From: Candidatus Poribacteria bacterium
Lineage (GTDB): Bacteria > Poribacteria > WGA-4E > JAJDTR01
Direction: 5' to 3'
Assembly (NCBI GenBank): GCA_022827055.1
Contig: JAJDTR010000165.1
Location: forward strand, 17,682-81,681
Length of the DNA: 64,000 nucleotides
Both the position numbers and the translations under genes were made by a program. The first letter of the stretch is position 1, and every line of letters begins with the position of its first letter. The notes beneath the pieces were generated by a model, which was given only the letters and a program-made list of their open reading frames with translations, searched no databases and was not told the origin of the DNA. Positions 6,311 to 58,125 of the stretch are shown here, one piece after another.

Positions 6311-6710
6311 ATCAAGCGAGTGAAAAATGATTAAAGGAGATAGTATCGACGAATAGACTAGGGAAGATTGGCTGAGTGGCCATAGGGATCAAGTTAAGCG
6401 TTTTAGGGTGCGAGTCACACGGTTTTAATGTTGTAAACTGCCAATTTCCATGTAAACTTGGACGAGGAAATACCGATCCATTGATTGATGGGTGCACCAC
6501 AGAAGATGATTTATGGCACTCGTTTCCGTAAGGGCGTGGCCCGGTGCGGTTGGAAACCGCACCTACCGTATGGGGTGCGAGGAAAACCTCACCAATACTA
6601 GACGAACTCCCTTAACTTGATCCCTATGGGGAAGATTGACTGAGTGGCCAACGAAGGAGGAGCTAACCGATCAACCGAGTGAACAGCGAGGGCGGTAGAG
6701 TTCCCATAGA
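6311..6710. repeat. composite repeat region. Two same-orientation copies of the dispersed GATCAAsCGAgTGaa...GCGATAG element (6311-6345 and 6671-6700) bracket a segment. That segment is flanked by a perfect 19-bp inverted repeat (CCATAGGGATCAAGTTAAG, 6384-6402 and 6602-6620) and a 22-bp direct repeat (GGGAAGATTGrCTGAGTGGCCA).
   Basis: Read directly from the sequence. Related fragments occur at 18050, 25957, 29765, 51541, 58083 and inside the CRISPR array. Confidence 0.6.
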
Positions 6711-6932
6711 AATCTCATTATCCTGTGAAAGCATCGAACGCGCGATTAGCAGCGTGCTTCCCCGTTCCTCAGGCTCCTCCCCCAACCCCCGTCAATCCAC
6801 GCTTTTTTAAGGTAATTAGCATAAAAAACTTGCGTAGGACACCGCCCTGTGATATCATCCTCGTGCCAAGAGATCAGCAGTAACCGGCATATATCGAAGT
6901 TGATTATAGTCTTGAAGCCCCACCGCAACGCA

Positions 6933-7928
6933 ATGAAATCGCAACTCATCGACAATTTCAACCGCGTGCACACAAACCTGCGCATCTCCATAACCGACCA
7001 GTGCAACTTTCGCTGTGTCTACTGCATGCCGGAAGACATGGAGTTTATGGAAGATGAAGAGGTGATGACGTTTGACGAAATTGTCCACCTTGCCCGCATC
7101 TTTGTCGATTTGGGCGTTCGCAAGGTCAGAGTCACCGGCGGAGAACCGTTGGTTCGTCGCGGCGTTCCGGAACTCATCAGCCGACTCAGCCAAATTGAAG
7201 GACTGAAGGACATCAGTTTGACGACAAACGGCATCGGCTTGATTAAACAGGCGGGTGCGCTTTACGACGCCGGGCTTCGGCGCATCAACGTCAGCCTTGA
7301 CACGCTGAACGAATCAAAATTTGAGCAGATGACGCGCCGAAAAGTGCTCTCCAAAGTATTAGAGGGGTTGCGCGAGGCGAAGCGCTGCGGGTTTGACCCG
7401 ATTAAGGTCAACGCCGTGCCGCTGCGAGGGTTTTCGGACGACGAAATCGTCGATTTGGCAGCGTTTGCTCGGGAAAATTCCTATCAACTCCGATTCATTG
7501 AGTTTATGCCCCTGGATGCAGACGACATTTGGGGAAAGAATATGTTTATTCCCGGCGAAGAGATTGTGAATAAAATCAATGCGGTCTTTCCCCTTGTGCC
7601 AGTTCCAAACGAGGGTGACCGGAAGCACGATACGGCAAAGTGTTTCCGTTTCAGAGACAACGGCGGCGAAATCGGCATCATCGCCTCCGTCAGCGAGCCG
7701 TTTTGTGACCAATGCAACCGCATTCGTCTTACATCGGACGGGAAGTTCCGAACATGCCTGTTTTCGCTGACGGAAACCGATTTGCTGATGCACCTGCGCG
7801 CTGGCGCTCCCGACGGCGTGATTGCGGATATGATTGTGGACGCGGTGAAAGCCAAGGGGCCCGGGCACAAGATAAACGCCGCGGATTTTATCAAACCTGA
7901 GCGCAATATGTCGAGGATTGGAGGATAA
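6933..7928 (+). CDS. moaA: GTP 3',8-cyclase MoaA (radical SAM, molybdenum cofactor biosynthesis)
   Basis: CNFRCVYCMPE radical-SAM cluster motif, a C-terminal second Cys cluster (CDQCNRIRLTSDGKFRTC), and about 330 aa from the internal Met MKSQLIDNF. Confidence 0.9.
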   Translation: MKSQLIDNFNRVHTNLRISITDQCNFRCVYCMPEDMEFMEDEEVMTFDEIVHLARIFVDLGVRKVRVTGGEPLVRRGVPELISRLSQIEGLKDISLTTNGIGLIKQAGALYDAGLRRINVSLDTLNESKFEQMTRRKVLSKVLEGLREAKRCGFDPIKVNAVPLRGFSDDEIVDLAAFARENSYQLRFIEFMPLDADDIWGKNMFIPGEEIVNKINAVFPLVPVPNEGDRKHDTAKCFRFRDNGGEIGIIASVSEPFCDQCNRIRLTSDGKFRTCLFSLTETDLLMHLRAGAPDGVIADMIVDAVKAKGPGHKINAADFIKPERNMSRIGG

Positions 7929-7993
7929 CCTCACCTCGGCGAATTCTGTAGAGAAACTGAATTGTAGGACTGTGAAGGGATTTACGCAAAACG

Positions 7994-8827
7994 ATGAGTG
8001 ATGAGTTAGTCATTGATGATTTACACGTGAGCGTTGAAGACAAGCCGATTATCAAGGGGCTTAACCTCAGGATTAAGCAGGGCGAAATCCACGCGCTCAT
8101 GGGACCTAACGGGTCGGGCAAAAGTACCCTATCCAACGCATTAATGGGGCATCCGCACTACGATGTTGACAAAGGTACGGTTACTTTCAATGGTGCGCCC
8201 ATCCTCGAGTTGGAACCGAATGAACGAGCGAGGCTTGGACTCTTTCTCGCCTTTCAGTACCCAACGGCGATTCCTGGGGTTACCATGGCGAATTTTCTCC
8301 GGATGGCGGTGAGTTCCGTGCGCTCCGAAAATTCAAACGGAAGCGAAACTACCGAATTGATTCCCATGCGTGAATTTCGCCGCGAACTTCGAGGAAAAAT
8401 GAAACAGTTGGGTGTTGATGAATCGTTCGCTCGACGCTATCTTAACGACGGTTTTTCGGGCGGCGAGAAAAAGAGGGCGGAAATTCTGCAACTCGCGATG
8501 CTTGAGCCCAAGGTAGCAATCCTTGATGAGACGGATTCAGGATTGGATATTGACGCCGTCCGTATTGTTGGTGAAAGTGTGAACCAGTTGATTGGTCCCA
8601 ACTTGGGAGTCTTAATTATCACACACTACCCGCGCCTCCTCAACTATATCCGACCCGAATATGTACATGTTCTGCTTGACGGTAGAATCGTTGAATCCGG
8701 GGGTTGGGAACTTGCCGAACTGTTGGAGGAGAAGGGATACGATCCAATACGCGAAAAATACGGCATTGCAGCGACAGTACCGGACACTGACGGCGAAGCG
8801 GAAGAATCGAGCGCCTTTCGGGGCTAG
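7994..8827 (+). CDS. sufC: Fe-S cluster assembly ATPase SufC
   Basis: Walker A GPNGSGKST, ABC signature FSGGEKKR, and SufC-typical N-terminus. Confidence 0.92.
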   Translation: MSDELVIDDLHVSVEDKPIIKGLNLRIKQGEIHALMGPNGSGKSTLSNALMGHPHYDVDKGTVTFNGAPILELEPNERARLGLFLAFQYPTAIPGVTMANFLRMAVSSVRSENSNGSETTELIPMREFRRELRGKMKQLGVDESFARRYLNDGFSGGEKKRAEILQLAMLEPKVAILDETDSGLDIDAVRIVGESVNQLIGPNLGVLIITHYPRLLNYIRPEYVHVLLDGRIVESGGWELAELLEEKGYDPIREKYGIAATVPDTDGEAEESSAFRG

Positions 8828-8920
8828 GTTAAAATCGCGGGGAACAAAACGTAAGTACGGTGTGTAAAAACATTCGTTACAAATCATGTGCAACATATCG
8901 CGCGATAAAGGAAAAATACT

Positions 8921-10339
8921 ATGGCAGCTCCAGAAAAGACAACGCAAGATAACTTAGGTATCAGCAGCGACTATAAATACGGTTTTCACGATGATGTCAA
9001 ACCGGTTTTCAAATCACGGAAGGGTTTGGATCCAGAAATTATCAACCAGATGTGCGACATCAAGGGCGAGCCGGATTGGATGCGCCAATATCGCCTGAAA
9101 GCCTACGAGATATTCAAGCAGAAGCCGATGACGAAATGGGGCGGAGATCTGTCCGAACTCGACTTCGACGACATCTACTACTACGTCAAAGCCTCCGATC
9201 GTAGCGAGCGGAGTTGGGATGACGTGCCCGACGACATCAAGAAGACGTTTGATCGGCTCGGCATTCCCGAAGCCGAGCGGAAATTCCTCGCCGGTGTCGG
9301 TGCGCAATACGATTCTGAAGTGGTTTACCACAACATGGAGAAGGAACTGGACCAGATTGGTGTTGTCTTTCTCGATACCGATACCGCGTTGCGTGAACAC
9401 CCCGATTTGGTGAAAGAATACTTTGGCACGGTAATTCCCTCGGCGGACAATCAGTTTGCCGCACTCAACAGCGCAGTCTGGAGTGGTGGCAGCTTTATCT
9501 ACGTCCCGCCCGGCGTCAAAGTCAACTACCCGTTGCAGGCGTATTTCCGCATCAATACCGAGAACATGGGGCAATTTGAACGCACCCTAATTATCGCCGA
9601 CGAAGGTGCCGAGGTGCACTATGTCGAAGGATGTACCGCACCGACATTTTCCAGCGAATCGCTGCACAGCGCCGTTGTGGAAATCATCTGTAAGAAGGGG
9701 TCGCGTGTCCGCTACACCACCATCCAAAATTGGGCGAATAACGTGTATAACCTCGTCACCAAGCGCGCAGTCGCCTACGAGGACGCGCATATGGAATGGA
9801 TTGACGGCAACTTGGGTTCCAAACTCACGATGAAGTATCCCAGCATTTACATGATGGAGCCGGGGGCTCGCGGCGAGATTCTCTCAATCGCTTTCGCAAG
9901 CAGCGGACAACACCAAGACGCTGGCGGCAAGGTCTTCCACTGCGCGCCGCACACCACCTCGCGCATTACCTCCAAGTCGATTAGTAAAGATGGCGGCATC
10001 TCCAGCTATCGTGGTTGGGTCGACGTGGCAAAGCGCGCGAAGGGGTGTAAATCCCACGTTGTGTGCGATGCCTTGATTCTTGATGAAGATTCACGATCCG
10101 ATACCTACCCCGTCATTGAGATTGGCGAGAACGATGTGAGCATTGAACACGAAGCGCACGTCAGCAAAATTGGCGAGGAACAGCTCTACTATCTGATGAG
10201 TCGCGGACTTTCCGAGGAAGCGGCGTCAACCATGATTGTTAACGGGTTTATCGATCCGCTCATCAAGGAGCTACCGATGGAATACGCGGTAGAGATGAAT
10301 CGTTTAATCCAACTGCAGATGGAAGGGTCTGTCGGATAA
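8921..10339 (+). CDS. sufB: Fe-S cluster assembly protein SufB
   Basis: 472 aa with conserved SufB blocks, directly after sufC. Confidence 0.9.
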
Positions 10340-10383
10340 CAGGTGAACCGGTAGAACCGTTTATCACGTTTCAAGAGTGGAGA

Positions 10384-11823
10384 TTGCAATTGAGTTCCGA
10401 ACTGATTCAAACTCGCCCCCGTGCTCATGATGTGCGCACGGGGGACTTTTCACGCGACTTTGTGGAGGAGATATCCAGATGTCAAGATGAACCCAAGTGG
10501 ATGCGTGAGAGGCGGCTGGAGGCGCACGATGCTTACGAGTCCCTCCTAATGCCGCACACCGCTGATGATGACGAATGGCGACGGAAAGTGGACATGCGCA
10601 CGCAGGACTACTGGCGGCGCACAAAGCGGAACATGCGCGGTTTCAATGTGGATGACTACACACCTGTCGCATTTTCGGCATCGGAAACACCCACCTCATC
10701 CGGCATAACGAAAACACGGGCGGAGTCGAAAGAAGCATCATCCGGTGTCATCGCTATGGTGGATGGCTCACCCGTCGAATCCTTCCTGTCAAAGGAGATT
10801 GAACGAAAAGGGGTTTATTTCGCGGATCTGAATACGGCGTTGAAGGAACGTCCCGATTTTGTCAGGTCATGTTTCATGACCAAGGGGGTGACGACCGAGA
10901 CGCAACTCCGAAGCGGCAACATCCCGCTGCGGAACAAATTTGACGCGCTGCACGGCGCGTTTTGGCAAGGCGGATACCTGCTGCACGTCCCCAAAGGCGT
11001 CGTTGTTGAGATTCCGTTGCGTGTCTTCATCGCGCTGTCCGAGTCCGGGCGCGCGGATCTGTCACATACGATCATTGTTGCCGACGCCGACAGCAAGGTC
11101 ACAATTCTTGAGGAGCAAGTGTCGTCAGACGGCGGGGTTGCGGGGTTCCATTGCGGAGCCGTCGAACTGTTTGCCGGACAAAACGCCAACGTCACCTATG
11201 TGCAGGTGCAGCGATGGAATCAGCAGGTCTGGAATTTTTCCACGCAGCGCGCGATAGCCGGAAGGGATTCCCGGTTATGCTGGGTCACCGGCACGCTGGG
11301 AAGTCGCCTGAGCAAACTGAATCAGACCGCTGCGCTTGAAGGCGCGGGAAGCAACGTTCAAATGCTAGGCTTGACGTTCACCCATTCGCGCCAACATGTT
11401 GACGTGAGCACCGCGCAGGAGCACATCGCGCCGCATACTTCGAGCGATCTGCTGTATAGAACCGTGCTTCGGGATAGGTCGCAAACGGCATGGAGCGGCA
11501 ACATCTACGTCTATCCCGACGGTCAGCATACCGACGCTTATCAGAAAAACGATAACCTGGTGTTGAGTGACCGCGCTCATGCAGATACGTTGCCGGGCTT
11601 GGAAATTCAAGCGCACGAAGTGCGTTGCACGCACGGCGCAACCGCGGGACCGATCGACAAAGAACAGGTGTTCTACCTGATGAGCCGGGGGTTGTCGCGC
11701 AGCCAAGCCGAGAAGATGATTGTCGACGGTTTTTTCGAGCCGGTGATGGATAGAATTCCGCTGGATTCGGTTCGCGGTGAATTGCAGGACTCGATTACAC
11801 AAAAACTCACGGCTGCAAAATAA
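10384..11823 (+). CDS. sufD: Fe-S cluster assembly protein SufD
   Basis: SufB/SufD-family beta-helix C-terminal region following sufB. The exact start is uncertain. Confidence 0.8.
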   Translation: MQLSSELIQTRPRAHDVRTGDFSRDFVEEISRCQDEPKWMRERRLEAHDAYESLLMPHTADDDEWRRKVDMRTQDYWRRTKRNMRGFNVDDYTPVAFSASETPTSSGITKTRAESKEASSGVIAMVDGSPVESFLSKEIERKGVYFADLNTALKERPDFVRSCFMTKGVTTETQLRSGNIPLRNKFDALHGAFWQGGYLLHVPKGVVVEIPLRVFIALSESGRADLSHTIIVADADSKVTILEEQVSSDGGVAGFHCGAVELFAGQNANVTYVQVQRWNQQVWNFSTQRAIAGRDSRLCWVTGTLGSRLSKLNQTAALEGAGSNVQMLGLTFTHSRQHVDVSTAQEHIAPHTSSDLLYRTVLRDRSQTAWSGNIYVYPDGQHTDAYQKNDNLVLSDRAHADTLPGLEIQAHEVRCTHGATAGPIDKEQVFYLMSRGLSRSQAEKMIVDGFFEPVMDRIPLDSVRGELQDSITQKLTAAK

Positions 11824-11912
11824 GAGTAACGACTTAGGTTTGTAGTACAATCCATAACCAACCATTAGGAAGTCACTTTTCTGTGCAATTGAAATGTGGT
11901 CAGTGATGATTT

Positions 11913-12004
11913 CACTAGCCACTGTTTTTAGATGCTTTCACTGGTCACTGAACACTGCTTCTAGATGCTTTCACTGGTCACTAGTCACTGACCACTAGCC
12001 ACTG
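11913..12004. promoter_or_regulatory. nested direct-repeat array (CACTrGyCACTG x5 and a 21-bp TAGATGCTTTCACTGGTCACT x2) immediately upstream of the glutaredoxin-like gene; candidate operator
   Basis: Symmetric A-B-B-A repeat arrangement ending about 20 bp before the RBS aaaggagac. Confidence 0.35.
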
Positions 12005-12024
12005 CCTTTAAAGGAGACAACAAA

Positions 12025-12369
12025 ATGAGTCAACCCACAATCACCGCCTACATGAAGCCCGTCTGCGGTTGGAGTAACGGCGTTCGCGCCATCTTCGCCA
12101 AATACGGTTTGGAGTACGAAGACAAAGACATCATCAACAATGCGAACAACTATCGCGAAATGGTCGAAAAGACCGGTCAGCCGATGCAGCCGTGCGTCCA
12201 AATCGACGATGTCATACTCGCCGATGTCAGCGGCGATGAGGTCGAGGCATACCTTATCCAGTCGGGCATTGTCCAACATAGCGAAGCGGCAACCGATGTG
12301 CCCACCGACGAAGCGTGCGCCGATCATGGTCCCGCTTCGGTAAACATCGGCTTCACAAGCGACAGATAA
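12025..12369 (+). CDS. monothiol glutaredoxin-like protein (CGWS active site)
   Basis: CGWS in place of CGFS and a thioredoxin-fold pattern (QPCVQIDD). Located inside the suf operon. Confidence 0.6.
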   Translation: MSQPTITAYMKPVCGWSNGVRAIFAKYGLEYEDKDIINNANNYREMVEKTGQPMQPCVQIDDVILADVSGDEVEAYLIQSGIVQHSEAATDVPTDEACADHGPASVNIGFTSDR

Positions 12370-14109: not shown

Positions 14110-14111
14110 GC

Positions 14112-17749: not shown

Positions 17750-18049
17750 AGTTAATATCCAATAGTGTTATCCAGACGGAGATGGTAGTCTATCCTCGTT
17801 CCTGTGCCGGGCTGTAACTGTGAGGGAGAGTTAATATCAAGCGTTCATGCTCATGTTTGAACAGTTATAACACCGAAGTTCGTACAAATCAAGTTAATCC
17901 TTGAGCTATTCTGTTTACTTATAGTTTGTATCAACATCTTCTGCGTCGCAGAGAAGTCCCCCGCAGCAAGCGTGTAAAAATACACGCCGTTCGCCACGGG
18001 TTCCCCGAAGTCGTTTTTGCCTTCCCAATGGGATTAACCGAACGAATAG

Positions 18050-18135
18050 TGAGGGATCAACTGAGCGATTAGCGAAGGATCAAGGGAACAAATAGCGAAC
18101 GCGATAGAATTCCCATAGAAATCCTGTGCGATAGA
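18050..18135. repeat. three tandem degenerate copies of the dispersed GATCAAsCGA...GCGATAG element
   Basis: gattaaccgaacgaatagtgaggg / atcaactgagcgattagcgaagg / atcaagggaacaaatagcgaacgcgatagaattcccatagaaatc. Confidence 0.5.
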
Positions 18136-18220
18136 GACTTTTTTGCCACTCCCGCAAAGGTGTGGTTCTGTGAGTGGCGAATTCTGTCCGGCTTACCACG
18201 TACAGTTATGTCTTTTCCTT

Positions 18221-25905: not shown

Positions 25906-25956
25906 TGGTGTGCGATCATTCGTAATGGATAGCTTTTTTTACGTATTACGATCAAG

Positions 25957-26015
25957 CGACTGAATTAGGAGATCAAGCAAGTGAATAGCGCGCGCGATAG
26001 TAAATCCTGCGATAG
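25957..26015. repeat. two tandem copies of the dispersed GATCAAGCGA...GCGATAG element
   Basis: gatcaagcgactgaattaggag / atcaagcaagtgaatagcgcgcgcgatagtaaatcctgcgatag. Confidence 0.45.
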
Positions 26016-26047
26016 CTACCTTATTACGCATTATTTCTATCCTAAGC

Positions 26048-29485: not shown

Positions 29486-29764
29486 GAATTCTACTTTCTC
29501 CTTGTCTTTTGACTGATTGAAGTGGCAATGACACAAGTTAAAGGATGTACTTTTGTCTGAAAATTTCCGCGTCCAATTTTGAGTTATACTTCACGCTGCT
29601 GGAAGTTGCGTGTTTTCAAGGGATCCTATCCCGATGGCGATTGATTCCCGTACCACGATCTGTTAGATTGTGATCGCATCTGTACGATGACAGATGCCTA
29701 CGTCATGCTATCTGTGCCAGTAAAGCGTCCAAATCCGCTTGGATGAGGCGGAGATAGCTATCAA

Positions 29765-29850
29765 TCATCTGATATCAACCGACTGAACAACAAGCGCGAT
29801 AGGAATCCGATAGCCAATCCTGCGATAGGCCCTTTAGAAATCCCACAGAA
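29765..29850. repeat. dispersed GATCAAsCGA...GCGATAG element copy with trailing GCGATAG/ttagaaatccc motifs
   Basis: atatcaaccgactgaacaacaagcgcgataggaatccgatagccaatcctgcgatagg... Confidence 0.45.
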
Positions 29851-31124: not shown

Positions 31125-31664
31125 ATGATGGAAGAATGGATCAAAGTTTTCATTCCGTTAATCGGCTCGTTAGTTGGAATTGCGGCATTGTGGTGGAAAC
31201 TTACCACAAGCATGGCGACAAAAAAGGACATATCAGAACTTCGGGCTGACATGCATCGAGCCGATGATAGCCTCCGTGCGGACATGAGTAAACTGAGCAA
31301 CAGGCTGGACGCGCTTTATGATGCACATCACACGGGAATAAATAAACTTAATGAGAAGATAGATGCCAATTCACGGGCGCATCACAACGACATAAACAAA
31401 CTCAATGAGAAGATAGATGCCAATTCACGGGTGCATCACAACGACATAAACAAACTCAATGAGAAGATGGAGGCTAGCTTTACCCGACTTGATGAGAAGA
31501 TTGACGCCGGTTTAATCCGACTTGACGAGAAGATAGATGCCAATTCACAGGCGCATCATAACGACATAATGCAAGTGATAAACAAAATAGATGGCGTGGC
31601 GAACGATTTACGAGCCGAAATTAGAGAACGGGTACGCGACAAGGTTCACGACGATGAGGGCTGA
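31125..31664 (+). CDS. membrane-anchored coiled-coil protein built from 18-aa HHNDINKLNEKIDANSRA repeats
   Basis: One N-terminal TM helix followed by tandem heptad-rich repeats. No known family. Confidence 0.5.
   Translation: MMEEWIKVFIPLIGSLVGIAALWWKLTTSMATKKDISELRADMHRADDSLRADMSKLSNRLDALYDAHHTGINKLNEKIDANSRAHHNDINKLNEKIDANSRVHHNDINKLNEKMEASFTRLDEKIDAGLIRLDEKIDANSQAHHNDIMQVINKIDGVANDLRAEIRERVRDKVHDDEG
31323..31484. repeat. three tandem 54-bp coding repeats inside the coiled-coil gene
   Basis: CATCACAACGACATAAACAAACTCAATGAGAAGATAGATGCCAATTCACGGGyG repeated in the sequence. Confidence 0.7.
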
Positions 31665-47519: not shown

Positions 47520-47700
47520 TGCAGCCGTAGGTTGGGTTGAACGGAAATACGTTAGTAATCGCTAATCTTGTAACAGTTTTCGAGTGCCTATTTCGCTTGA
47601 ACGCGCCAAAATTTGAGTGAAACCCAACACGGCCTACCACCATGAGACCTCCTCTGCAATTAGATGCGTTTCCCCTGCCCCTACACATAACTCACCGAAG
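47520..47700. mobile_element. family-2 MITE-like element, second copy (core plus right TIR; left TIR degenerate)
   Basis: About 80% identical to 22990-23190, including CCATGAGACmCCyTGyAwTTAGATGCGTTTCCCCTGCyCCTA. Confidence 0.4.
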
Positions 47701-51217: not shown

Positions 51218-51540
51218 ATTTCTCCTTGATTTTTATCACAACCCTTTTATCAATAAATGCAAGAATTACGACTGTAGATTTTTCCTCCCGGCCTAGGTTC
51301 TGTTGACATTTGAAAATTGAGCCAAAATTGAGTCAATTTCCGTAGGGGTTGGGTTTCCCAACCCGCTGGGCGAGGAGACCTCGCCCCTACGATAGAGACT
51401 TATCGGCGAATTATGGACACACATTACATAAATGTCAACACGCCCTAGCCCTTTTATATCTTGGGCGACCTAGAGATTAGATTCTATTATGAATTCCTTA
51501 GCGTGTCTAGCGATTTGTAATCGCCCCACACGGAAAACGG

Positions 51541-51580
51541 ATGTGTATGTAGGATCAAGCGAATGGATAATGAGCGCGAT
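51541..51580. repeat. solo copy of the dispersed element (GGATCAAGCGAATGGATAATGAGCGCGATAG)
   Basis: Almost identical to the reverse-strand copy at 58083-58125. Confidence 0.5.
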
Positions 51581-51600
51581 AGAGATCCCCATGCCCCGCT

Positions 51601-52515
51601 CTACGAAGAACGCAGAACAGCGTCCACCCTCTCATGTGGTCTGAGCCGTGGATCCACCTCAACGCCGACAGCATGAGCCAAGGCGAGGTGAATCTGTCGG
51701 ACACCCTCCGTCAGAGCCGCAGGACCAGGCTGCAAGATGTAGGTCGATTTTACCTCGTAGACGTGTCCTTGACGCACGGCAGTTATTCCCGACCAACCGG
51801 GTCTAGCCGTGATACGATCTTTATTGACCTTGACGCCGCACCAAGAAGCGATGACCACCTCCGGATCACGAGAGACAACGTTACCGGGATCAAGGATACG
51901 GTCGCGTGCCAACGGTTTCTGGCGTAGTTCCGGGAATACCGGTTCCCCGCCCGCCAACTCGATGAGTTCCTCTACCCACTGAATGCCGCTAATTAACGGT
52001 TCGTTCCACTCCTCGAAGAAAACCCGCGGTCGTCGCGGAAAGCGCCGTGCCGACCCTCGAATCTCCTCCAACCCACTCGTCAGCGCCGAAGCGAGCGCTT
52101 TGCCTTTCTGCGGTGTCCCCACCAAACCAGCCAAGGTCAGAATCATCTGCAGAATCTCGGCGACGCTTCTTTGATTGAAGGCGAGGACGGTCAATCCTTT
52201 TTGGATCAACTCCCGCGCGATTTCGGCTTGCAGATCGGAAAAAGCCAGCACCAAGTCCGGGCGTAATTCCAAAATCTTGTCTATCTTTGCGCTGACAAAA
52301 GCCGAAACCCTCGGCTTGGACCGCGCCTCCTTGGGACGAACCGTGTACCCCGAGACTCCCGCGATTCGGTCCTCCTCACCCAAAAGATAAAGAGTTTCCG
52401 TGGTTTCGTCCGTCAAGCAGACAATGCGGCGAGGATAGCCGCCAAGGCTGTCAACGCTGAGTTTTTCCGGCAATGCCCCCGTCTTTATTCCCAATCTGTC
52501 TTGCTCGTTATTCAT
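51601..52515 (-). CDS. ABC-type substrate-binding protein of the siderophore/cobalamin (BtuF/FecB-like, class III) fold. No obvious signal peptide
   Basis: RIVCLTDETTETLYLL...DLVLAF pattern typical of class III periplasmic binding proteins. Confidence 0.55.
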   Translation of the reverse strand: MNNEQDRLGIKTGALPEKLSVDSLGGYPRRIVCLTDETTETLYLLGEEDRIAGVSGYTVRPKEARSKPRVSAFVSAKIDKILELRPDLVLAFSDLQAEIARELIQKGLTVLAFNQRSVAEILQMILTLAGLVGTPQKGKALASALTSGLEEIRGSARRFPRRPRVFFEEWNEPLISGIQWVEELIELAGGEPVFPELRQKPLARDRILDPGNVVSRDPEVVIASWCGVKVNKDRITARPGWSGITAVRQGHVYEVKSTYILQPGPAALTEGVRQIHLALAHAVGVEVDPRLRPHERVDAVLRSS

Positions 52516-53242
52516 TCGCTTGATCGTAATGCCTCAACACCGTCTCCAGCGCCTTCAAGTGAGCGGCGGTGCGCTGGCGCATTGGTAAACTCGTAGGTGT
52601 TTCGCAAATCATCACGTGGTCGGAGTGAAAAGCGAGTAGGTAAGGGGTAAACCCTTGTAGCCCCCAGCCGGGGTCGACCTTGAACACACCGTCAGCGATC
52701 AGCAAGTCGTTTTCATCGTGCTCCCGATCAATCGGGCAAACGCTCTCGACGTTCTTGGTGACCTCCGGCCCGATCCAGTTTTCACTTTTTCGTCCCTCAT
52801 AGAAGTAAAACCCCGCGGCTTCCCAATCCTCGTGAAAATCTATTGCGAAATCGAATCGTTCGCCAGCCACCGCCGCTTTGACGAGACGAGCTTCCTCTGG
52901 CGGATTGTCGACTTCAAACACACGGTTGAGATCTATCCCCGTTCCGTTTTCGCGGGTATCGTGGACATAGCCGAATGGATTGATGCAAGGCAGGATGAGA
53001 AACCCGAAGTTGCTATAGCGTGTTGCGTCGTATTCGTACAAGAAGCGCAGTACCGATTCCGGTCCCGCCGGTTCATCTCCATGCAGCCCCGCGGTTATTA
53101 GGACCTGACGCTTCGCACGAGGACCTCCCCCTACCATCAGACGATAGATGGCGCAGCCATCAACCTCTCCAAGGGCATCTTGCTCTAGGTTGGGCAAGCT
53201 TAATTCGCGTAATCTCCGCTCAAAATCATCATAATCCCGCAC
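52508..53242 (-). CDS. zinc carboxypeptidase-like protein (M14 / AstE-AspA family)
   Basis: HGDEPAG zinc-binding motif and NPFG motif. Confidence 0.55.
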   Translation of the reverse strand: MRDYDDFERRLRELSLPNLEQDALGEVDGCAIYRLMVGGGPRAKRQVLITAGLHGDEPAGPESVLRFLYEYDATRYSNFGFLILPCINPFGYVHDTRENGTGIDLNRVFEVDNPPEEARLVKAAVAGERFDFAIDFHEDWEAAGFYFYEGRKSENWIGPEVTKNVESVCPIDREHDENDLLIADGVFKVDPGWGLQGFTPYLLAFHSDHVMICETPTSLPMRQRTAAHLKALETVLRHYDQANE

Positions 53243-53308
53243 AGCGACGCACCTTACCTCGTGAAAACCGAAAAGAAATTCTACTACGATGAAATCGAGA
53301 AAACCTTC

Positions 53309-54724
53309 TTAGGGGAAAATTCCGGCTTGCATATAAAACTGTGCCACCTTATTGATAGCAATGAGGAACGCCGCGGTTCGTAAGTGGAATTCACCGCCAA
53401 GCGCTCTTGCTTCCGTTCTTATTTCGTGGTATGCGGTTATCATGGTATCCTCAAGCGCCGCATCCACCAAATCTTCTTCCGTGGCGCCATGCGTCAGTCG
53501 TTCTTGTTCCTCTTCCGGAAAGCGCTTTCCCGAGACGTTTTCCACTGCCTTCAGAAGATTTCTGCGCATATTCTCGTCAAATCGGCTTTCGAGCCGACCA
53601 AACCGCACATGCGAAAGGTTCTTTAGCCATTCAAAATATGAGAGCGTCACGCCGCCGGAATTTAGATACACATCCGGTATAACCATCACCCTTTGTGCCT
53701 TGAGGATGTCGTCGGCTTCGGGGGTCGTCGGACCGTTTGCCGCTTCTCCAATAATTTTTGCTTTGATTCGGGAGGCATTATGGCGCGTGATCTGATTTTC
53801 AAGCGCCGCCGGTACGAGGATATCACAATCCAGTTCGAGGACGTGGGCGGGTTTTGAGAGATTCGTCGCGTCCGGGAAGTTGAATAAGCTACCGTTTTCA
53901 CCCCGATACTGAAAGGCCTCCTCAACATCCAACCCGTTCGAATTGTAGATTGCGCCGCCAATGTCCGCCAATCCAACGACCACCGCCCCACCTTCACTCA
54001 AGAATTTGGCGGCGTGGTACCCGACCTGACCAAATCCCTGAACCGTCACCCGTTTTCCATCCAACCCAGGCTCCAGCCCAAGTGTTTTCATATCTTCCGG
54101 AACATTGCAAGCCTCCCGGATGCCAAAATACACGCCTCTGCCGGTCGCCGCTCTCCGTCCGTGAATCCCGCTCTGTTCGACCGGTTTTCCGGTCACACAT
54201 GCTAACGTGTCCAACGCGCCCGGATTCAATGTGGTGTAGGTGTCGGCGATCCATGTCATTTCACGCTCCCCGGTACCGTAGTCGGGCGCCGGAACGTCTA
54301 TGCCCGGACCGATGAAATTTTTCCGCACCAATTCATACGTGTAACGGCGAGTGATGCGTTCCAATTCGTCGGTGGAATACTTCCTGATGTCGATTTGGAC
54401 GCCGCCCTTTGCCCCGCCGAACGGCACGTCGACGAGAGCGCACTTGTATGTCATCAGGGCGGCGAGCGCCATCACCTCATCCTCATCAACCAACGTACTG
54501 TAACGGATTCCTCCCTTTGTCGGCAGTTTGTGATGACTGTGTTCCGCACGCCACCCATGGATGACCTCAATCGCGCCGTCATCTCTTTTGACCGGAAATG
54601 CCATGTGACAGATCGTATTGCACATTTTGACCTGATCAAGCAGCCCCGACGGGAAATCGGTGTACCGAGCGGCGGTATCGAAATTAAGGTTGACCTGTTG
54701 AAAAAACGGAACTGTTGGCGCCAT
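53309..54724 (-). CDS. gdhA: NAD(P)-dependent glutamate dehydrogenase
   Basis: GGAKGG catalytic motif (VPFGGAKGGVQID). Start chosen at MAPTVPFF, preceded by a gaggagg RBS. Confidence 0.9.
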   Translation of the reverse strand: MAPTVPFFQQVNLNFDTAARYTDFPSGLLDQVKMCNTICHMAFPVKRDDGAIEVIHGWRAEHSHHKLPTKGGIRYSTLVDEDEVMALAALMTYKCALVDVPFGGAKGGVQIDIRKYSTDELERITRRYTYELVRKNFIGPGIDVPAPDYGTGEREMTWIADTYTTLNPGALDTLACVTGKPVEQSGIHGRRAATGRGVYFGIREACNVPEDMKTLGLEPGLDGKRVTVQGFGQVGYHAAKFLSEGGAVVVGLADIGGAIYNSNGLDVEEAFQYRGENGSLFNFPDATNLSKPAHVLELDCDILVPAALENQITRHNASRIKAKIIGEAANGPTTPEADDILKAQRVMVIPDVYLNSGGVTLSYFEWLKNLSHVRFGRLESRFDENMRRNLLKAVENVSGKRFPEEEQERLTHGATEEDLVDAALEDTMITAYHEIRTEARALGGEFHLRTAAFLIAINKVAQFYMQAGIFP

Positions 54725-54822
54725 TTCGGTCCTCCTCTTCATCACGTCATTCGTGGCTACTCTGGTAGGCGCGGTTTCCAACCACGCTGAATGGTTAGAC
54801 CTTCAGTCCCCCTCCATCGGGG

Positions 54823-55011
54823 ATCAACCGAGTGAATAACGAGTGCGATAGCTAATCTTCTTAGGCCTCCAGAAGATACACACCTTTCGGGAATAGAGCA
54901 ATGCTTAAATGGGATATGCCGTTGGAGTCGAGTTAAAAGTTACATGCTTGCTACAGCGATGGGAATTCTATCACCTTCGCTATCAGGATCTCTATCGCGC
55001 TCCTTAATCAG
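54823..55011. mobile_element. MITE-like element copy i (189 bp) inside a CRISPR repeat
   Basis: TIRs are aTCAACCGAGTGAATAACGAGTGCGATAG and CTATCGCGCTCCTTAATCAGTCGCTTGATC. Confidence 0.6.
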
Positions 55012-55122
55012 TCGCTTGATCTGTTCGTTCGTTTAATCTCAGTTGATCCTTTTCGTCGGGGTATAGGTTGCTACCCGGTGCAGGAATTTGTATCAACTCG
55101 CCTCAGAATCTTTCAGTCCCCT

Positions 55123-55326
55123 TTTCGTCGGGAATCAACCGAGTGGACAACGAGGGCGATAGCTAATCCTCTTAGGTCTCCAGAAGATACACGCCTTTCG
55201 GGAATAGTGCAACGCTTAAATGGGATACTGCCATTGGAGTCAAGTTACAATTACATGCTTGCTACCGCGATGGGAATCCTATCGCCTTGGGATCTCTATC
55301 GCACTCGCTATGCACTCGCTCGACTC
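55123..55326. mobile_element. MITE-like element copy ii (about 204 bp) inside a CRISPR repeat
   Basis: About 88% identical to copy i. The right TIR is degenerate and is followed by TTTTCATCAG. Confidence 0.55.
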
Positions 55327-55468
55327 TTTTCATCAGACTCAACCCTCGTAGGCGGGGCATCCTGCCCCGCCTGAAGATGCCCTTCCTAATCAGGGCATGA
55401 GGTGTCACAATCCAAATCGCTCTGATCCGCTCCGGGCCAATCCACTTTCAGTCCCCTTTTCATCGGGG

Positions 55469-55573
55469 ATCAACCGAGTGGATAGCGAGGGCGATAGTAG
55501 TTTTCCTCCCTAATCACACACTTTAGGTCTCTCTTTGGAATCGCTATCGCGCTCCCTATCCGGTCGCTTGATC
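55469..55573. mobile_element. MITE-like element copy iii (105 bp short variant) inside a CRISPR repeat
   Basis: TIRs are ATCAACCGAGTGGATAGCGAGGGCGATAG and CTATCGCGCTCCCTATCCGGTCGCTTGATC. It is flanked by TTTTCATCGGGG and TTTTCATCGCGG. Confidence 0.6.
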
Positions 55574-55674
55574 GCTTTTCATCGCGGCATTCACTGCTAC
55601 AAGTGCGCGGCGCGCTTAGGGAGGTGGGAAAAGTGTTCTTTCAGTCCCCTTTTCGTCGGGGCATAGGTTGCTAC

Positions 55675-56079
55675 GACCTATCGATCAATAGCCGAAACTC
55701 CTCTAAACATAGAAACCACTTGCGTTTGTAAGTCATGCTTGTAATTTTGACACATCGGCACTGCCCTGTCAATTTCAAACGGCGCAGGCGCCAAGTATTC
55801 AGTGTTCATCAGTGTTTGACGGCTTAGCGTGTGGATTTTCGAAAATCGTTAGTTTGTCCCCAAACATCGCTCGGGGCACACGCAACCTCGACGTAGACTG
55901 CCGAAAATCGGGTTGAAATTCACGTGAAATGTAGTACCATCCCGCTGCGTAAATCTTTATTATCCACGGTCGGGACCAAGTCCTGTCTGCGTTCCACGCC
56001 TATATTGGGATTTCGCAAATCGACCCCCGTTTTCCGCAGAAAACGGATTTTCGAAACGCTTCGATTTTAATTGGATGCC
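55675..56079 (-). promoter_or_regulatory. CRISPR leader region with repeated palindromic GATTTTCGAAAmyC / CCGTTTTCCGCAGAAAACGG motifs
   Basis: Lies between cas4 and the first repeat. It is AT-richer than its surroundings and contains three related motifs. Confidence 0.45.
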
Positions 56080-56652
56080 TCACAACACATCGGCGCAGAA
56101 TCGCCGAAATTCGCATTCGACGCATTTTCCGCGCTGCGGCGTCGGTGGCGGCATCCATTCATCCGATAGCATCCGTCGGATGTCCCGGAGCGCGCCGCGC
56201 GTTTTCTCGCGGAGCGACTCTGATATTGCAATCGGCGTGATTCGCCCCGTGGGAATCCGATAGATAAACCCCTGAGTCACCGCGACGCCGAGACATTCCT
56301 CCACCATCATGGCGTAGGCTGTTAACTGGCATTTCGCGTTCAGGTCGAGTCGTCCTCTCGTGCTCTTGAACTCCACGGGGAACGCCCCGGTTTCCGTCTC
56401 GATAAGCAGGTCGAGCACGCCGGTCAATCCCAGTGACTCGGCATGGAGCGGAACGTGGAATTTCCGGCTGCCAGCCTCAAGCCCGTAACAGGCAAGCGTC
56501 CGGCGGCGCTCCAAGACGCTTAACACCTCGTGTTCGTCCGCGCCAAGCTCCATCGGGTGCGTCATCGGACGGTGTACCGGAGTGAAGTAGGTGTGGTAGA
56601 CCACCCGCGGACAGTAGAAATACTGTTTAATGTCGCTGACTCGTATATTCAT
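56080..56652 (-). CDS. cas4: CRISPR-associated exonuclease Cas4
   Basis: N-terminal Cys (YFYCPR), RecB-nuclease motifs (VLDLLIETE...EFKS, QLTAYAMM), and a C-terminal CVECEFRRFC cluster. Confidence 0.85.
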   Translation of the reverse strand: MNIRVSDIKQYFYCPRVVYHTYFTPVHRPMTHPMELGADEHEVLSVLERRRTLACYGLEAGSRKFHVPLHAESLGLTGVLDLLIETETGAFPVEFKSTRGRLDLNAKCQLTAYAMMVEECLGVAVTQGFIYRIPTGRITPIAISESLREKTRGALRDIRRMLSDEWMPPPTPQRGKCVECEFRRFCADVL

Positions 56653-56900
56653 CTTTCAGCATCCCCGATAATAGTGCGTTGGTCGAAATCCTTCGCACAC
56701 ACGCCGATCACCTCTATCTTTCCTTCGGCGGCTCCAAATTCTCGTGTCAGTTTCGCGTCCAACGCTCGGCGGCGCGTGGTATTAATGTCCCCCAAGAAAG
56801 CGCTGTATTGAATCCGTTTCAAACCGTAGTCGAGACAGACATCGGCAATCTTTTTGCGTATTCGGTCTTCGACGATGTCATAAATAACGTATGTGTACAT
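56649..56900 (-). CDS. cas2: CRISPR-associated endoribonuclease Cas2
   Basis: 83 aa, MYTYVIYDIVEDRIRKKIADVCLDYGLKRIQYSAF. Confidence 0.85.
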   Translation of the reverse strand: MYTYVIYDIVEDRIRKKIADVCLDYGLKRIQYSAFLGDINTTRRRALDAKLTREFGAAEGKIEVIGVCAKDFDQRTIIGDAER

Positions 56901-56906
56901 ACCACG

Positions 56907-58016
56907 TCACCAACTCGTCACCAACGGCTGATAATCCCTCTCTCCGCGCAGGAACATCGCCAGATGACGCGCCTGAATCTGGATGATATTGCACAGCTTC
57001 TGGTCTTTACGCTCGAACCGCTCCGTCTCCTGAAGCCGTTCCAGAATCCGGTCGGCGAGCGAGCGCCGCGTGCCTTTGCTCAAATACCGCTGCGTACCCG
57101 CGTCCGGATCCGCATCCGGCTTTGCCGACTGGTGCGCGGATTTGGCGGCGTCGTCATCCGGCTCCTCCCATTCGACCTTAAACTTCTTGTTAATCATCGC
57201 AAACACCACCCGGTCAACAATCGGCTGGCGGAACTCCTCGATGAAATCCAACACCAGCGACGGTTTGCCCGGGCGATCGACATGGAGAAATCCCGCGAAC
57301 GGTTCCAGCCCAGCCAGCGCAAGCGCGCTCCACACTTGGGAATAGAGCATCCCGTAGCCGTAATTGAGCAGCGCGTTCACATCGTCCGCCGCCCCCTGAT
57401 GTTCCCGCGTCGTGAATCGCCCGGTGGGCAGCAGCCGTTGCACACACTCCCAGTAGAGCGCTCCCGCGCGTCCCTCAAGGTTGAGCAACGTGGTTCGGAG
57501 GGCATCAATCGGCGACTCCCCGTTCTCCTCAACCCTCGGCGCTTGGAGAATCTGAATATCGCCCATCAGCTCCTCAATCTTGGTAGCCCGCTCCACCAGT
57601 TCGTCGTACCTCTTGGGCGCGCTTTTCTTGCGGTACTTGCCGAAATAGCGCACCAAGTTTATCTGATTCCGCAGCTTCCCCGCCGCGAACCGCTTGGCAA
57701 TCTCCACTCCGCGCTCATCGTGATACGCGGCGAGTTGCTCCCGCCGGGAGATGACCGTCGCCGTCAACGAAGGGCTGTTGAGTTTGGCGTACGGTTTGCC
57801 GTTGAAACTGAGAAACGAGATTTCAATCCCGCGCTCCGTGCACGCCTCAATCAGGTCCGACGACAAGCTAACCCCGCGCGACGCAATAACAATCTGATCC
57901 AGATCCATGAGGGCGTGCTCCTCTTTCCCCCGCTCCTCATCGCGATAGCGCACGCTGACGCGCTCCGAACGTTTGCCGAGGGAGGTGCCGAAGTCGGAGA
58001 TAGTGAGTTGGTTCAT
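56907..58016 (-). CDS. cas1: CRISPR-associated integrase Cas1
   Basis: Cas1 fold signature regions (ISDFGTSLGKRSERVSV..., NALLNYGYGML, and the E/H/D catalytic region). Confidence 0.9.
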   Translation of the reverse strand: MNQLTISDFGTSLGKRSERVSVRYRDEERGKEEHALMDLDQIVIASRGVSLSSDLIEACTERGIEISFLSFNGKPYAKLNSPSLTATVISRREQLAAYHDERGVEIAKRFAAGKLRNQINLVRYFGKYRKKSAPKRYDELVERATKIEELMGDIQILQAPRVEENGESPIDALRTTLLNLEGRAGALYWECVQRLLPTGRFTTREHQGAADDVNALLNYGYGMLYSQVWSALALAGLEPFAGFLHVDRPGKPSLVLDFIEEFRQPIVDRVVFAMINKKFKVEWEEPDDDAAKSAHQSAKPDADPDAGTQRYLSKGTRRSLADRILERLQETERFERKDQKLCNIIQIQARHLAMFLRGERDYQPLVTSW

Positions 58017-58082
58017 GTTTTTTTCCTTATAAAAAACTTCAGTTGTTTAGTTCAGTCTAGAACTTACGCGACAACAGGAGTT

Positions 58083-58125
58083 CGTGTTCGGAGATCCCTC
58101 GCTATCGCACTCATTATCCATTCGC
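58083..58125. repeat. solo copy (reverse orientation) of the dispersed element in the cas1 / brnT divergent promoter region
   Basis: The reverse complement is GATTAAGCGAATGGATAATGAGTGCGATAGCGAGGGATC. Confidence 0.5.

Follow-up and report, generated by a model that had tools for sequence, protein, structure and literature searches.

The stretch of Candidatus Poribacteria DNA analysed here (the window, 64,000 nt) carries the motif GATCAA...GCGATAG at scattered places between its genes, which raises the question of what kind of element it belongs to. The initial annotation took it for the terminal repeat of a genome-specific MITE or REP-type family, with complete copies in a CRISPR array and solo or tandem repeats elsewhere. 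The motif itself is real, since every site named there carries it: GATCAASCGA (up to one mismatch) was observed 28 times against 12.2 expected and GCGATAG 26 times against 7.3 expected, counts reached in 0 of 100 shuffles. The scattered motifs are copies of a hairpin-containing element of about 36 bases, dispersed in intergenic DNA of sponge-symbiont Poribacteria, whose insertion into itself, other repeats and CRISPR repeats does not fit the pattern of an ordinary MITE.

Size and distribution of the family

The consensus module is GATCAAsCGAnTGrAyArcGAGnGCGATAGnnATCC (37 nt), with sharp edges at the G of GATCAA and at about position 37. The window holds 12 full and approximately five partial copies at eight intergenic places. 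When 185,579 species genomes were scanned, at least 113 module loci were found, all in Candidatus Poribacteria, and in at least 13 genomes of this group the copies are spread across whole chromosomes; searches of viral and JGI metagenome collections gave zero matches. The family is therefore lineage-wide across Poribacteria rather than genome-specific, and it is not confined to 60 kb, in keeping with the mobile family first suggested. Using nhmmer, 390 copies were found at E < 0.05 in 967 kb of sequence. The description as a dispersed intergenic repeat was borne out, as 73% of copies are fully intergenic while only about 20% of the DNA is non-coding. Single modules are the commonest state (106 of 169 occupied regions). 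The supposed frequency downstream of convergent gene ends was not recovered: modules occupy 20 of 69 convergent, 32 of 81 divergent and 117 of 384 co-directional regions, and no class is preferred.

A covariance model trained on 101 copies from other genomes recognized the 12 full modules of the window at E ≤ 2e-7. Bit scores below refer to this model. Outside the CRISPR array the copies are:

about 6310–6345, plus strand: decayed module, the weakest copy (TATCAAGCGAGTGAAAAATG...); partial match with nhmmer (E = 1.4), no match with the covariance model
6634–6714, plus strand: head-like piece (6634–6656), full module 6669–6705 (head 6669–6691; 50.9 bits, E = 1.3e-10) with tail GCGGTAGAGTTCC, then a second tail CATAGAAATC; from sequence reading, with a rule-based finder placing heads at 6634 and 6669
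18032–18138, plus strand: Russian-doll stack of three 23-nt heads (partial at 18032 and 18055; full module from 18078, 47.7 bits), then tails GCGATAGAATTCC, CATAGAAATCC and GCGATAGAGAC; TRF period 23 x 3.0; a head at 18029 scores 19.8 bits
25950–26020, plus strand: two-deep stack of partial head 25950–25970, full module 25971–26007 (47.0 bits) and orphan outer tail TGCGATAGC...
29773–29850, plus strand: full module 29773–29809 (38.3 bits, E = 2.3e-7), then several tail-like units (GATAGCCAATCC, GCGATAGGCCC, TAGAAATCC, CAGAAATC)
51553–51589, plus strand: single full module right after GTAG (58.2 bits), between the stop of a binding-protein gene and the dnaE start
52489–52525, minus strand: decayed module at a gene junction (22.2 bits, E = 0.003; nhmmer E = 1.2e-4)
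58095–58131, minus strand: one complete module (39.9 bits), flanked by cas1 and the gene of a BrnA-like antitoxin

The module at 51553–51589 is kept in a 98.5%-identical strain (L114). The copy at 52489–52525, absent from the initial annotation, has a head which provides both the TAA stop of gene 52508–53242 and the ATG of gene 51601–52515, two gene calls also present in public assemblies.

A hairpin read on one strand

Each module possesses a 17-nt hairpin in which four covarying pairs (6–22, 7–21, 10–18 and 11–17) surround an invariant tandem G.A/A.G (GA/GA), with the loop G-r-A-y-A. Over all position pairs, those with the highest mutual information are exactly these four nested pairs, each of them 94–97% paired with three to four pair types. 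The same pattern is seen in 156 copies not matching the retrieval pattern; in 101 of these the helix is 90.8% paired and double changes occur at all four pairs. The covariation score (101 copies) is 0.472; shuffling gave 0.189 (0/500) and sliding no more than 0.128. Because G.T wobbles are frequent (123 cells) and A.C pairs rare (18 cells; p = 2e-20), one strand is evidently read as a single strand, and the hairpin is selected on that strand only.

Insertion and nesting

Comparison of filled and empty sites with identical flanks shows single modules as indels of 35–36 nt without target duplication; clean pairs are L010 vs L085 (36 nt) and L091 vs L066 (35 nt), and module-in-module pairs are L111 vs L049 and L077 vs L065, most of the "empty" sites compared being paralogs and not true ancestors. 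Such clean presence or absence is seen inside other repeats, an ORF and CRISPR repeats, while in the orthologous pair L041/L108 unrelated sequence replaces the module. The base before a module is a G, often at a G^C site with G/C-rich surroundings, and a variable pyrimidine takes the place of the target base that came next.

This single-unit rule explains the "tandem" arrangements. The 23-nt stacks are Russian-doll self-insertions of n heads followed by n tails, so that what had been described as three in tandem (18032–18138) and two in tandem (25950–26020) are three heads then three tails and two heads then two tails. Reiterated GCGATAG and TTCCCATAGAAATC, present as reported, are the stacked tails of nested copies. 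Head and tail numbers match (1+1 in 211/302, 2+2 in 13/19 and 3+3 in 2/2). The 60-nt palindromes are opposite-strand self-insertions, with the orphan reverse tail this predicts in 8/8, and the 35/36-nt arrays are re-insertions: a further module entering at the same G should leave the junction ATCCy|TCAA, and 12 of 14 have it. In CRISPR repeats modules lie at one fixed site. The loops of REP hairpins hold modules with diverse hairpin signatures, 27:1 on the GTAG strand, with 1–2 nt lost on insertion. Repeated use of preferred sites thus accounts for the "tandem", "palindromic" and "full MITE" arrangements.

Proposed mode of movement

With about even confidence we read the module as a REP/SDR-like, ultra-small mobile element of some 36–37 nt which moves as a single strand, an HUH/Y1-type enzyme being the likeliest agent. 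The unit comprises a 6-nt leader, (G)ATCAA, the 17-nt hairpin and the tail GCGATAG-nn-ATCC-y, and sits after a G without target duplication, the following base giving way to a variable pyrimidine. Among the sites it prefers are the junction between the head and tail of another module, whichever the strand, the loops of GTAG-type REP hairpins, where it takes the GTAG strand, and a single position within this genome's CRISPR repeat. The single-stranded nucleic acid would most likely be ssDNA, handled in trans by the candidate enzyme. HUH/Y1-type enzymes move REPs and IS200/IS605 elements, and HUH transposition is normally base-precise; the non-retained target base and the 1–2 nt loss in REP loops run counter to this.

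As in PATEs (palindrome-associated elements derived from IS200/IS605) and the single-strand model of IS608, we see a strand-specific hairpin, insertion 3' of a short specific sequence and no target duplication, and the head-to-tail junction ATCCy|TCAA resembles a circle junction. Those elements have two different subterminal hairpins, exceed 100 nt and are joined precisely, whereas the module has one hairpin in about 36 nt, does not retain the junction base and has no TnpA found with it.

The SDR4–6 repeats of the Nostocaceae, reportedly described by Elhai et al. in 2008, are very small mobile repeats (21–27 nt). They occur within bigger repeats and at short palindromes, as SDR5 does in HIP1, and no enzyme is known to move them. 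They share with the module very small size, nesting, hairpin potential, lack of target duplication and restriction to a single lineage, but differ in sequence, phylum and length (21–27 vs 36–37 nt). Two further features of the module are the extensive covariation that backs its hairpin and its systematic insertion into itself at one fixed internal position. Small dispersed repeats are also mentioned in PMC5861425.

Relation to REPs

That the module is itself the REP of a dedicated RAYT, replicating as doublets of which the singlets are decayed remains, we consider unlikely. "REP-like" does hold in a broad sense: the module is short, extragenic, of high copy number, hairpin-forming on one strand, without target duplication, lineage-restricted, apparently vertically persistent and found in mosaic (BIME-like) clusters. 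Moreover, 26 of 367 modules lie directly after GTAG, two genomes contain 78-nt REPIN-like doublets whose spacer is conserved, and RAYT-type Y1 transposases are present in module-bearing genomes. Unlike a REP, however, the module has no internal GTAG head, its hairpin spans no more than 17 nt and contains tandem G.A, and its leader and tail are non-palindromic; where a module does follow GTAG, it has inserted into REP family B, after GTAGGA. It inserts into genuine REPs and is not one itself. The RAYT genes found are flanked by classical GTAG-REPs and not specifically by modules, none lies within the 64-kb window, and no enzyme is linked to the module. Singlets, not inverted doublets, dominate, are well conserved and form the indel unit. 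Finally, at free positions the two arms of an inverted pair resemble each other no more than random modules do (0.36 vs 0.50), the opposite of the co-conserved doublet arms which are the REPIN signature (PMC3116915).

Site-specific insertion into the loop of a REP hairpin is shared with the REP-targeting insertion sequences IS1397 and the ISPpu9/IS1111 group, cited in PMC3116915 (refs 41–42) and PMC8450116; these are full-size, protein-coding IS, and the module is a 36-nt non-coding unit.

A possible role in RNA

The hairpin might instead act in RNA, for example as a protein-binding GNRNA-loop/tandem-GA structure in untranslated regions, spread by retro-insertion or kept for effects on mRNA stability, termination or processing. 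The tolerance of G.U-type wobbles would suit this, non-templated addition might account for the variable base at the junction, and module orientation correlates weakly with gene strand at the locus level (rho 0.28, p = 0.003), leaving some room for an RNA role. Of the folding checks proposed initially, RNA parameters recovered the inner helix in two of four consensus variants and DNA parameters did not predict the hairpin; by nearest-neighbour folding it is weak (RNA z only -0.4 to -1.8). Yet in co-directional regions modules show no orientation bias (97 same, 90 opposite), divergent, promoter-side regions are equally occupied, and there was neither an Rfam family match nor a reverse transcriptase seen near the copies. 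Lack of gene-orientation bias and of region-class preference is expected of a selfish DNA-level element, and that modules nest at one and the same GC in either orientation is a property of a DNA site. We consider this explanation quite improbable.

The CRISPR array

The array that received several modules is a target, outside the family. It adjoins cas4-cas2-cas1 and is arranged as follows:

54799–55674, minus strand: small CRISPR array; repeat, read on the plus strand, CTTTCAGTCCCCTTTTCGTCGGGGCATAGGTTGCTAC, intact only at 55638–55674
54822–55048: composite 1; module (plus) 54822–54858 (43.5 bits), interior of about 125 nt, stacked reverse-complement tails, module (minus) 54985–55021 (50.8 bits), extra partial head (minus) 55022–55048
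55133–55325: composite 2; module (plus) 55133–55169, interior sharing about 90% identity with the composite 1 interior, module (minus) 55289–55325
55468–55573: composite 3; module (plus) 55468–55504 (49.1 bits), unrelated interior of about 32 nt, module (minus) 55537–55573 (58.5 bits)
56080–56652, about 56649–56900, 56907–58016 and 59023–61407: cas4, cas2, cas1 and cas3

The array reported initially is real but small, and its "complete MITE copies" are pairs of oppositely oriented modules. In a classical MITE moved by a DDE-type transposase, the 30-nt module would be the terminal inverted repeat, the CRISPR copies full elements and the solos remnants or one-ended leftovers. Inverted pairs do exist, DDE_Tnp_1 transposases lie near modules in related genomes, and each of the three composites lies between two copies of a 12-nt stretch of the CRISPR repeat core, CTTTTCGTCGGG, a duplication which looks like staggered-cut insertion and falls outside the single-unit rule. 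We nevertheless regard a MITE as very unlikely. The right-hand modules of the composites are separate insertions, because their compensated hairpin signatures differ (CT/AG, GT/GC and CC/GG), and nothing matching the interiors turned up in 900 kb of related genomes. The unit gained or lost is one module without duplication, singles predominate, pair arms lack special likeness, and nesting accounts for the 60-nt and 23-nt arrangements. The one IS found nearby, IS5-like, has unrelated ends, and strand-specific, G.T-tolerant pairing would not be selected by a duplex-binding transposase. Correia/NEMIS MITEs and pneumococcal BOX elements are likewise intergenic, multi-copy and modular with variable sub-unit number, and can provide start or stop codons (cf. 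the copy at 52489–52525); MITEs, however, come with a parent IS, duplicated targets and terminal inverted repeats in pairs. No such feature was found for the module, whose variable unit number arises from nesting and not middle-box slippage.

Least credible is the reading in which the modules do not move at all but are sites, kept by host selection, where a nucleoid or regulatory protein binds, and have multiplied through gene conversion and local duplication: invariant and free positions alternate, there is an internal periodicity of about 11.5 nt, the reverse strand resembles a DnaA box (TTATCCAC) and some copies are kept at orthologous sites across species (L030/L037, L041/L108), but compensatory covariation is not predicted for a duplex site, the constraint being that of a single-stranded hairpin, and clean 35–36-nt presence or absence, Russian-doll nesting and turnover between 95%-identical genomes all argue against it.

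Apart from the intact one at 55638–55674, the repeats of the array are split by modules, after ...CGGGG on the plus strand and after ...GAAAAG(G) on the minus strand. As a side effect, module insertion has thus broken three of the four or five local CRISPR repeats.

Distribution of the repeat

The motif was present at all of the sites named in the initial annotation. A repeat search of the window recovered nine direct and five reverse copies, making up families D1 and D3 and joined as inverted pairs I1–I8. Within the window GATCAASCGA (at most one mismatch) occurred 28 times versus 12.2 expected and GCGATAG 26 times versus 7.3, with no shuffle as high in either case. A scan of 185,579 species, one genome per species, with the pattern ATCAASCGANNGNNNANNGAGNGCGATAG (21 specified bases, approximately one chance match expected) returned at least 113 stretches from at least 13 genomes, and all of the matches listed were Candidatus Poribacteria MAGs. 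The same pattern had no match in IMG/VR viral contigs nor among 241 million JGI metagenome records. Since the loci are found in so many genomes and lie across entire chromosomes (from 0.48 to 6.14 Mb of OZ244829, for instance) rather than confined to one 60-kb region, the family is lineage-wide and not, as first proposed, genome-specific. Its host is an uncultivated phylum of sponge symbionts, for which no account of repeat families was found in the searchable literature. The window itself derives from a Poribacteria strain of sponge metagenomes, and contigs in ENA SAMN22237336 and Logan SRR16351679 are 100% identical to it. Handles such as L010 denote related Poribacteria loci, coordinates after a colon being those within the locus.

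Anatomy of the module and its hairpin

A profile of the 30-nt core searched against the window and 113 loci (967 kb) gave 517 matches, 390 of them at E < 0.05; the window contributed 17. In the match-anchored alignment conservation sets in sharply with the G of GATCAA and stops around position 37, with no fixed-register conservation outside these limits, while within them near-invariant positions alternate with near-free ones. This unit, here called the module, consists of a head (the leader GATCAA and a 17-nt hairpin) and a tail, GCGATAG-nn-ATCC-y.

When all pairs of positions from -12 to +52 were compared, the four highest non-adjacent mutual-information pairs were 10–18, 6–22, 7–21 and 11–17. 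They are nested and antiparallel, Watson-Crick or G.T in 94–97% of copies, and each is represented by three to four pair types. The invariant G8-A9 and G19-A20 sit between the covarying pairs, in a 5'-YGAR-3' context of the kind that suits tandem sheared G.A pairs, and the loop is G-r-A-y-A. The same pairing was seen in 156 copies outside the retrieval pattern. In an ungapped alignment of 101 of these the helix was 90.8% paired, all four pairs showed changes on both sides, and the covariation score of 0.472 was reached by none of 500 shuffles (0.189) and exceeded that of slid partners (0.128 or less). Cells with G.T outnumber those with A.C by 123 to 18 (p = 2e-20); the hairpin is thus strand-specific, its pairing being that of the GATCAA strand in single-stranded form. 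An outer stem GGATC/GATCC closing the module was not supported, being only 39.8% paired in fixed register, and a likeness of the reverse strand to DnaA boxes falls on freely varying positions and was judged coincidental.

Folding of the copies as RNA and DNA, which the initial annotation had recommended, gave the hairpin weak backing: the helix appears in two of four variants with RNA parameters and in none with DNA parameters, and no fold is predicted for the reverse strand. A role at the RNA level, or a route of retro-insertion, is possible. A search of Rfam 15 at gathering thresholds found nothing anywhere in the window, and the surroundings of the 51553 module gave no hit at E <= 10.

Insertion of single modules

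An all-against-all comparison with cheap gaps yielded filled and empty sites of which the sole difference is one module.

Filled and empty sites (filled locus first)
L010:7765, minus strand, and L085: CACTCCAGAGGA / TCAAGCG...AAATCCT / GTGAGATG against CACTCCAGAGGA / GTGAGATG; 36-nt difference, flanks 40/40 identical
L091:6575, minus strand, and L066: 35-nt difference within a GTAGGAGCGATCTCC... REP
L006 and L082: one module
L072 and L058: orthologous pair
L007 and L052; L070 and L001: module within the loop of a different hairpin repeat
L111 and L049; L077 and L065: module inside a module
L008:4857–4892 and L071: degenerate 36-nt module, in frame in a 909-aa ORF and absent from the homologous gene of L071

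In none of these pairs is the module accompanied by a target duplication or by direct repeats at its flanks. The module follows a G, and 74% of copies have G or C at -1. ATCC is followed by a pyrimidine, C or T, in 91%, regardless of the base at the empty site. The simplest description of these sequences is G^N -> G[ATCAA...ATCC-y]; since most of the empty sites are paralogs, the exact chemistry of the junction is something that we infer.

Several other explanations of the insertions were dismissed. Insertion of GATC-bounded restriction fragments is contradicted by empty sites without GATC. The GA is not derived from the target in the manner of the TTAC of IS608, since opposite-strand self-insertions after CTATC still start with GATCAA and empty sites show C, G or A at that place. 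Mis-integration by Cas1-Cas2, to which the spacer-like size might point, is ruled out for single modules by the lack of a duplication.

Public look-ups for strain polymorphism of the window's own modules gave only identical contigs or a strain which keeps the module. Two species of approximately 95% identity have one 78-nt doublet in common and differ at two other sites, where an unrelated short sequence is found instead. The strain of locus L114 (98.5% identical) retains the module at 51553 and differs by a classical MITE of 139 nt. This element (window 51302–51440; ends GTTCTGTTGACAT and ATGTCAACACGC, 5-nt duplication CCTAG, two inverted REPs) is absent from L114 and is therefore a recent insertion polymorphism.

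Self-nesting

The single insertion rule accounts for three architectures. Neighbors of the same orientation spaced at 23 nt are heads stacked before an equal number of tails: heads and tails match 1:1 in 211 of 302 stacks, 2:2 in 13 of 19 and 3:3 in both of two. In L084 the order is head, head, head, GCGATAGCTAATCC, CGATAGTAAATCC, TGATAGAAATCCCC. Such stacks would arise through repeated entry at G23^C24, between the unit's own hairpin and tail. The window clusters at 18032 (3+3) and 25950 (2+2) are Russian dolls of this kind. The reiterated GCGATAG and TTCCCATAGAAATC motifs of the initial annotation do exist, as tails of nested stacks and not as separate motifs.

Convergent pairs spaced at 60 nt carry an orphan reverse tail on one side in eight of eight cases (...TCTCTATC / GATCAA or its mirror), as would be expected of a unit entering this palindromic GC step on the opposite strand. 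Of 14 tandems of 35–36 nt, for which L019 and L061 provide a filled and empty example, 12 have a downstream unit that lacks GA and abuts as ...ATCCy / TCAA, which would be expected if a new unit reuses the target G of the older one. Within inverted pairs the two arms resemble each other no more than random modules do (0.36 vs 0.50 at free positions), so that there is no selection for a long hairpin between the arms; such a hairpin was also rejected as there is no complementarity beyond the family consensus.

Relationship to MITEs and insertion sequences

The initial annotation regarded the family as a MITE with solo terminal repeats. The indel unit is instead the single module, and 106 of 169 occupied intergenic regions hold just one. 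Terminal inverted repeats at both ends are not a feature of every copy, no interior is conserved across the three composites in the CRISPR array, and a duplication of fixed length (12 nt) is seen only at these composites. Neither a DDE nor a Y1 transposase is encoded within the window. The IS5-like insertion sequence of the loci (L063:3648–4605, L071:4819–5776) has ends TTAGAGCCTGTTTGAAAAGT, unrelated to the module. Many REP copies are preceded by GAGCCTGTTTGAAAAGTACA, a string also found at this element, which suggests a MITE derived from the IS5-like sequence and carrying a REP.

Other repeats were observed in the window:
6363–6651: repeat of approximately 247 nt (6384–6630) whose inverted ends are ATAGGGATCAAGTTAAG, with a hairpin GGTGCGG...CCGCACC; the flanking 20-nt direct repeat GGGAAGATTGRCTGAGTGGCC is itself like a module head; identity is 81–83% for the copies of L001 and L049, and some copies elsewhere have a module in the hairpin loop
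22992–23167, 47526–47677 and 29585–29747: intergenic repeat families, 88–99% identical over 100–180 nt elsewhere in Poribacteria
31292–31593: 54-nt and 33-nt tandem repeats (96% and 78% matches) in a coding region

Relationship to REPs and RAYTs

Classical REPs of these genomes consist of GTAG followed by a perfect palindrome, e.g. TGTAGGGTGCGCACTGCGCACC; the window holds nine of them.

REP-like sequences (GTAGG and a perfect 7–9 bp palindrome, several families) and RAYT-type Y1 ORFs
Window 14445, 19315, 22841, 37642, 51342, 55348, plus strand: REP-like
Window 6566, 29701, 51390, minus strand: REP-like
L091:2654–3232: RAYT-type Y1 ORF, REP-flanked
L033:5565–6140: RAYT-type Y1 ORF, REP-flanked
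L070:3845–4318: RAYT-type Y1 ORF, flanked by a different REP family

Searched by phmmer against an E. coli RAYT sequence, these ORFs scored 6e-38, 2e-36 and 2e-10, and Pfam Y1_Tnp matches in a batch scan also support them. All three are flanked by GTAG-REPs, one of them also by module-bearing REPs on both sides; this holds for the loci, there being no RAYT in the window.

Like REPs, the module contains an imperfect palindrome that forms a hairpin in single strands; this 17-nt hairpin takes up under half of the unit. The logo shows a GATCAA leader with nothing conserved upstream in place of a GTAG head 5' of the palindrome, and GTAG-adjacent modules are insertions into REP family B. REPINs are recognized by inverted doublets which are over-represented and better conserved than singlets [PMC3116915], whereas here singlets dominate, the arms of pairs are not more alike, and 60-nt pairs are nested insertions. 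On the defining features compared here, the module fits neither MITEs nor REPs or REPINs.

Modules often lie in REP loops, as in GTAGGGTGC[GATCAA...ATCCC]TGCGCACC, and have diverse hairpin signatures. Among the REP-A and REP-C arms sampled 49 were intact, 27 had a module on the GTAG strand and one on the other strand. This 27:1 coupling in a palindromic-stem target is the best hint in the sequences that target and element may encounter one another in single-stranded form. Apart from this, insertion between complementary flanks is just twofold enriched (6.8% vs 3.1%).

Disruption of the CRISPR array

The CRISPR array of the initial annotation is genuine: its 37-nt repeat (plus strand reading CTTTCAGTCCCCTTTTCGTCGGGGCATAGGTTGCTAC) adjoins cas4, cas2, cas1 and cas3 on the minus strand.

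Features of the CRISPR-Cas region
54799–61407: CRISPR-Cas locus with cas3, a BrnA-like antitoxin gene (between cas3 and cas1), cas1, cas2, cas4, leader and array
54822–55048, 55133–55325, 55468–55573: composites 1 to 3, each a pair of plus- and minus-strand modules
55638–55674: leader-proximal repeat, the only intact one

The module is not itself the CRISPR repeat; it interrupts the repeat of this small array. The break in three of the repeats falls at one and the same position, ...CGGGG / ATCAACC (plus strand), and the three reverse modules adjoin ...GAAAAG(G) on the minus strand. The REP at 55348 has CGGGGCA as its 5' arm as well. The left modules of the composites share one signature and the right modules show compensated differences (CT/AG, GT/GC, CC/GG); at least the right modules are therefore independent insertions at one site. 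The interior of composite 3 differs from those of composites 1 and 2, and none of the three interiors has a homolog in 900 kb of related loci.

The 12-nt CTTTTCGTCGGG is duplicated on the flanks of each composite. This may reflect insertion of the whole composite at a staggered cut, or alternatively two single insertions in neighboring repeats may have been followed by rearrangement. Under either origin the array is largely disrupted, and it looks largely decayed.

Possible mechanism

In its behavior the module resembles REPs and the very small dispersed repeats known from Nostocaceae. With IS200/IS605-type elements (PATE) it has in common strand specificity and the absence of target duplication; it differs in that its target is only G^N and the junction base is not retained. 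The sequences show a strand-specific hairpin, duplication-free indels of single units, a G^(C) target, self-nesting, and insertion into REP loops on the GTAG strand. By analogy with REP/RAYT [PMC3116915] and with IS200/IS605 systems such as IS608, the module would move as single-stranded DNA, presumably by means of a trans-acting HUH/Y1-type enzyme. Against a simple version of this scheme are the junction base, the lack of an enzyme linked to the module in the window or loci, and the lack of a clear orientation bias with regard to replication. Orientation is unlinked to local GC skew, which here tracks gene strand. The best half-chromosome split of OZ244829 is 13:8 vs 7:25, a suggestive pattern, with p = 0.0045 uncorrected over 60 splits and sparse sampling. 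Between 4.30 and 4.82 Mb (L006, L091, L089, L066) 18 of 19 module sites have one orientation, the rest of the sample being balanced; this run could represent a local burst or a replichore effect.

We suggest, tentatively and as a possibility on the doubtful side, that the module belongs to an undescribed class of minimal mobile DNA: a 36-nt single hairpin which would spread as a single strand into G^C steps at or near hairpins, moved by a trans-acting enzyme other than a classical RAYT or IS200 transposase. Recognition of its own head-tail junction would give the Russian-doll copies, and CRISPR arrays would be disabled because the CRISPR repeat of this genome carries the REP-arm target CGGGGCA. 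If true, few bacterial mobile units on record would be as small, and self-nesting, filled and empty sites and strand-specific covariation would provide unusually clean evidence, from within the sequences, of how it inserts. If a dedicated RAYT moves it, this is an ordinary though divergent REP system. The module is of interest because of its clean covariation and self-nesting insertion logic. It offers a concrete substrate for an enzyme search, namely a 17-nt tandem-GA hairpin that would be cut near G^A and behind ATCC. It explains breaks of Poribacteria assemblies in intergenic DNA, and it illustrates how a CRISPR array can be eroded by selfish repeats.

Genomic context

Based upon a crude gene call, 73% of copies are fully intergenic versus approximately 20% non-coding sequence. 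Occupied regions number 20 of 69 convergent, 32 of 81 divergent and 117 of 384 co-directional ones, so that the preference for convergent gene ends noted initially is not borne out. In co-directional regions the module lies on the gene strand 97 times and on the opposite strand 90 times. With no bias of orientation or region class, a terminator or promoter role was rejected. One decayed module (52489–52525) forms the junction of two genes, in agreement with public gene calls; the upstream carboxypeptidase-like gene has its TAA stop in the head of this module, and the same head includes the ATG of the periplasmic binding-protein gene.
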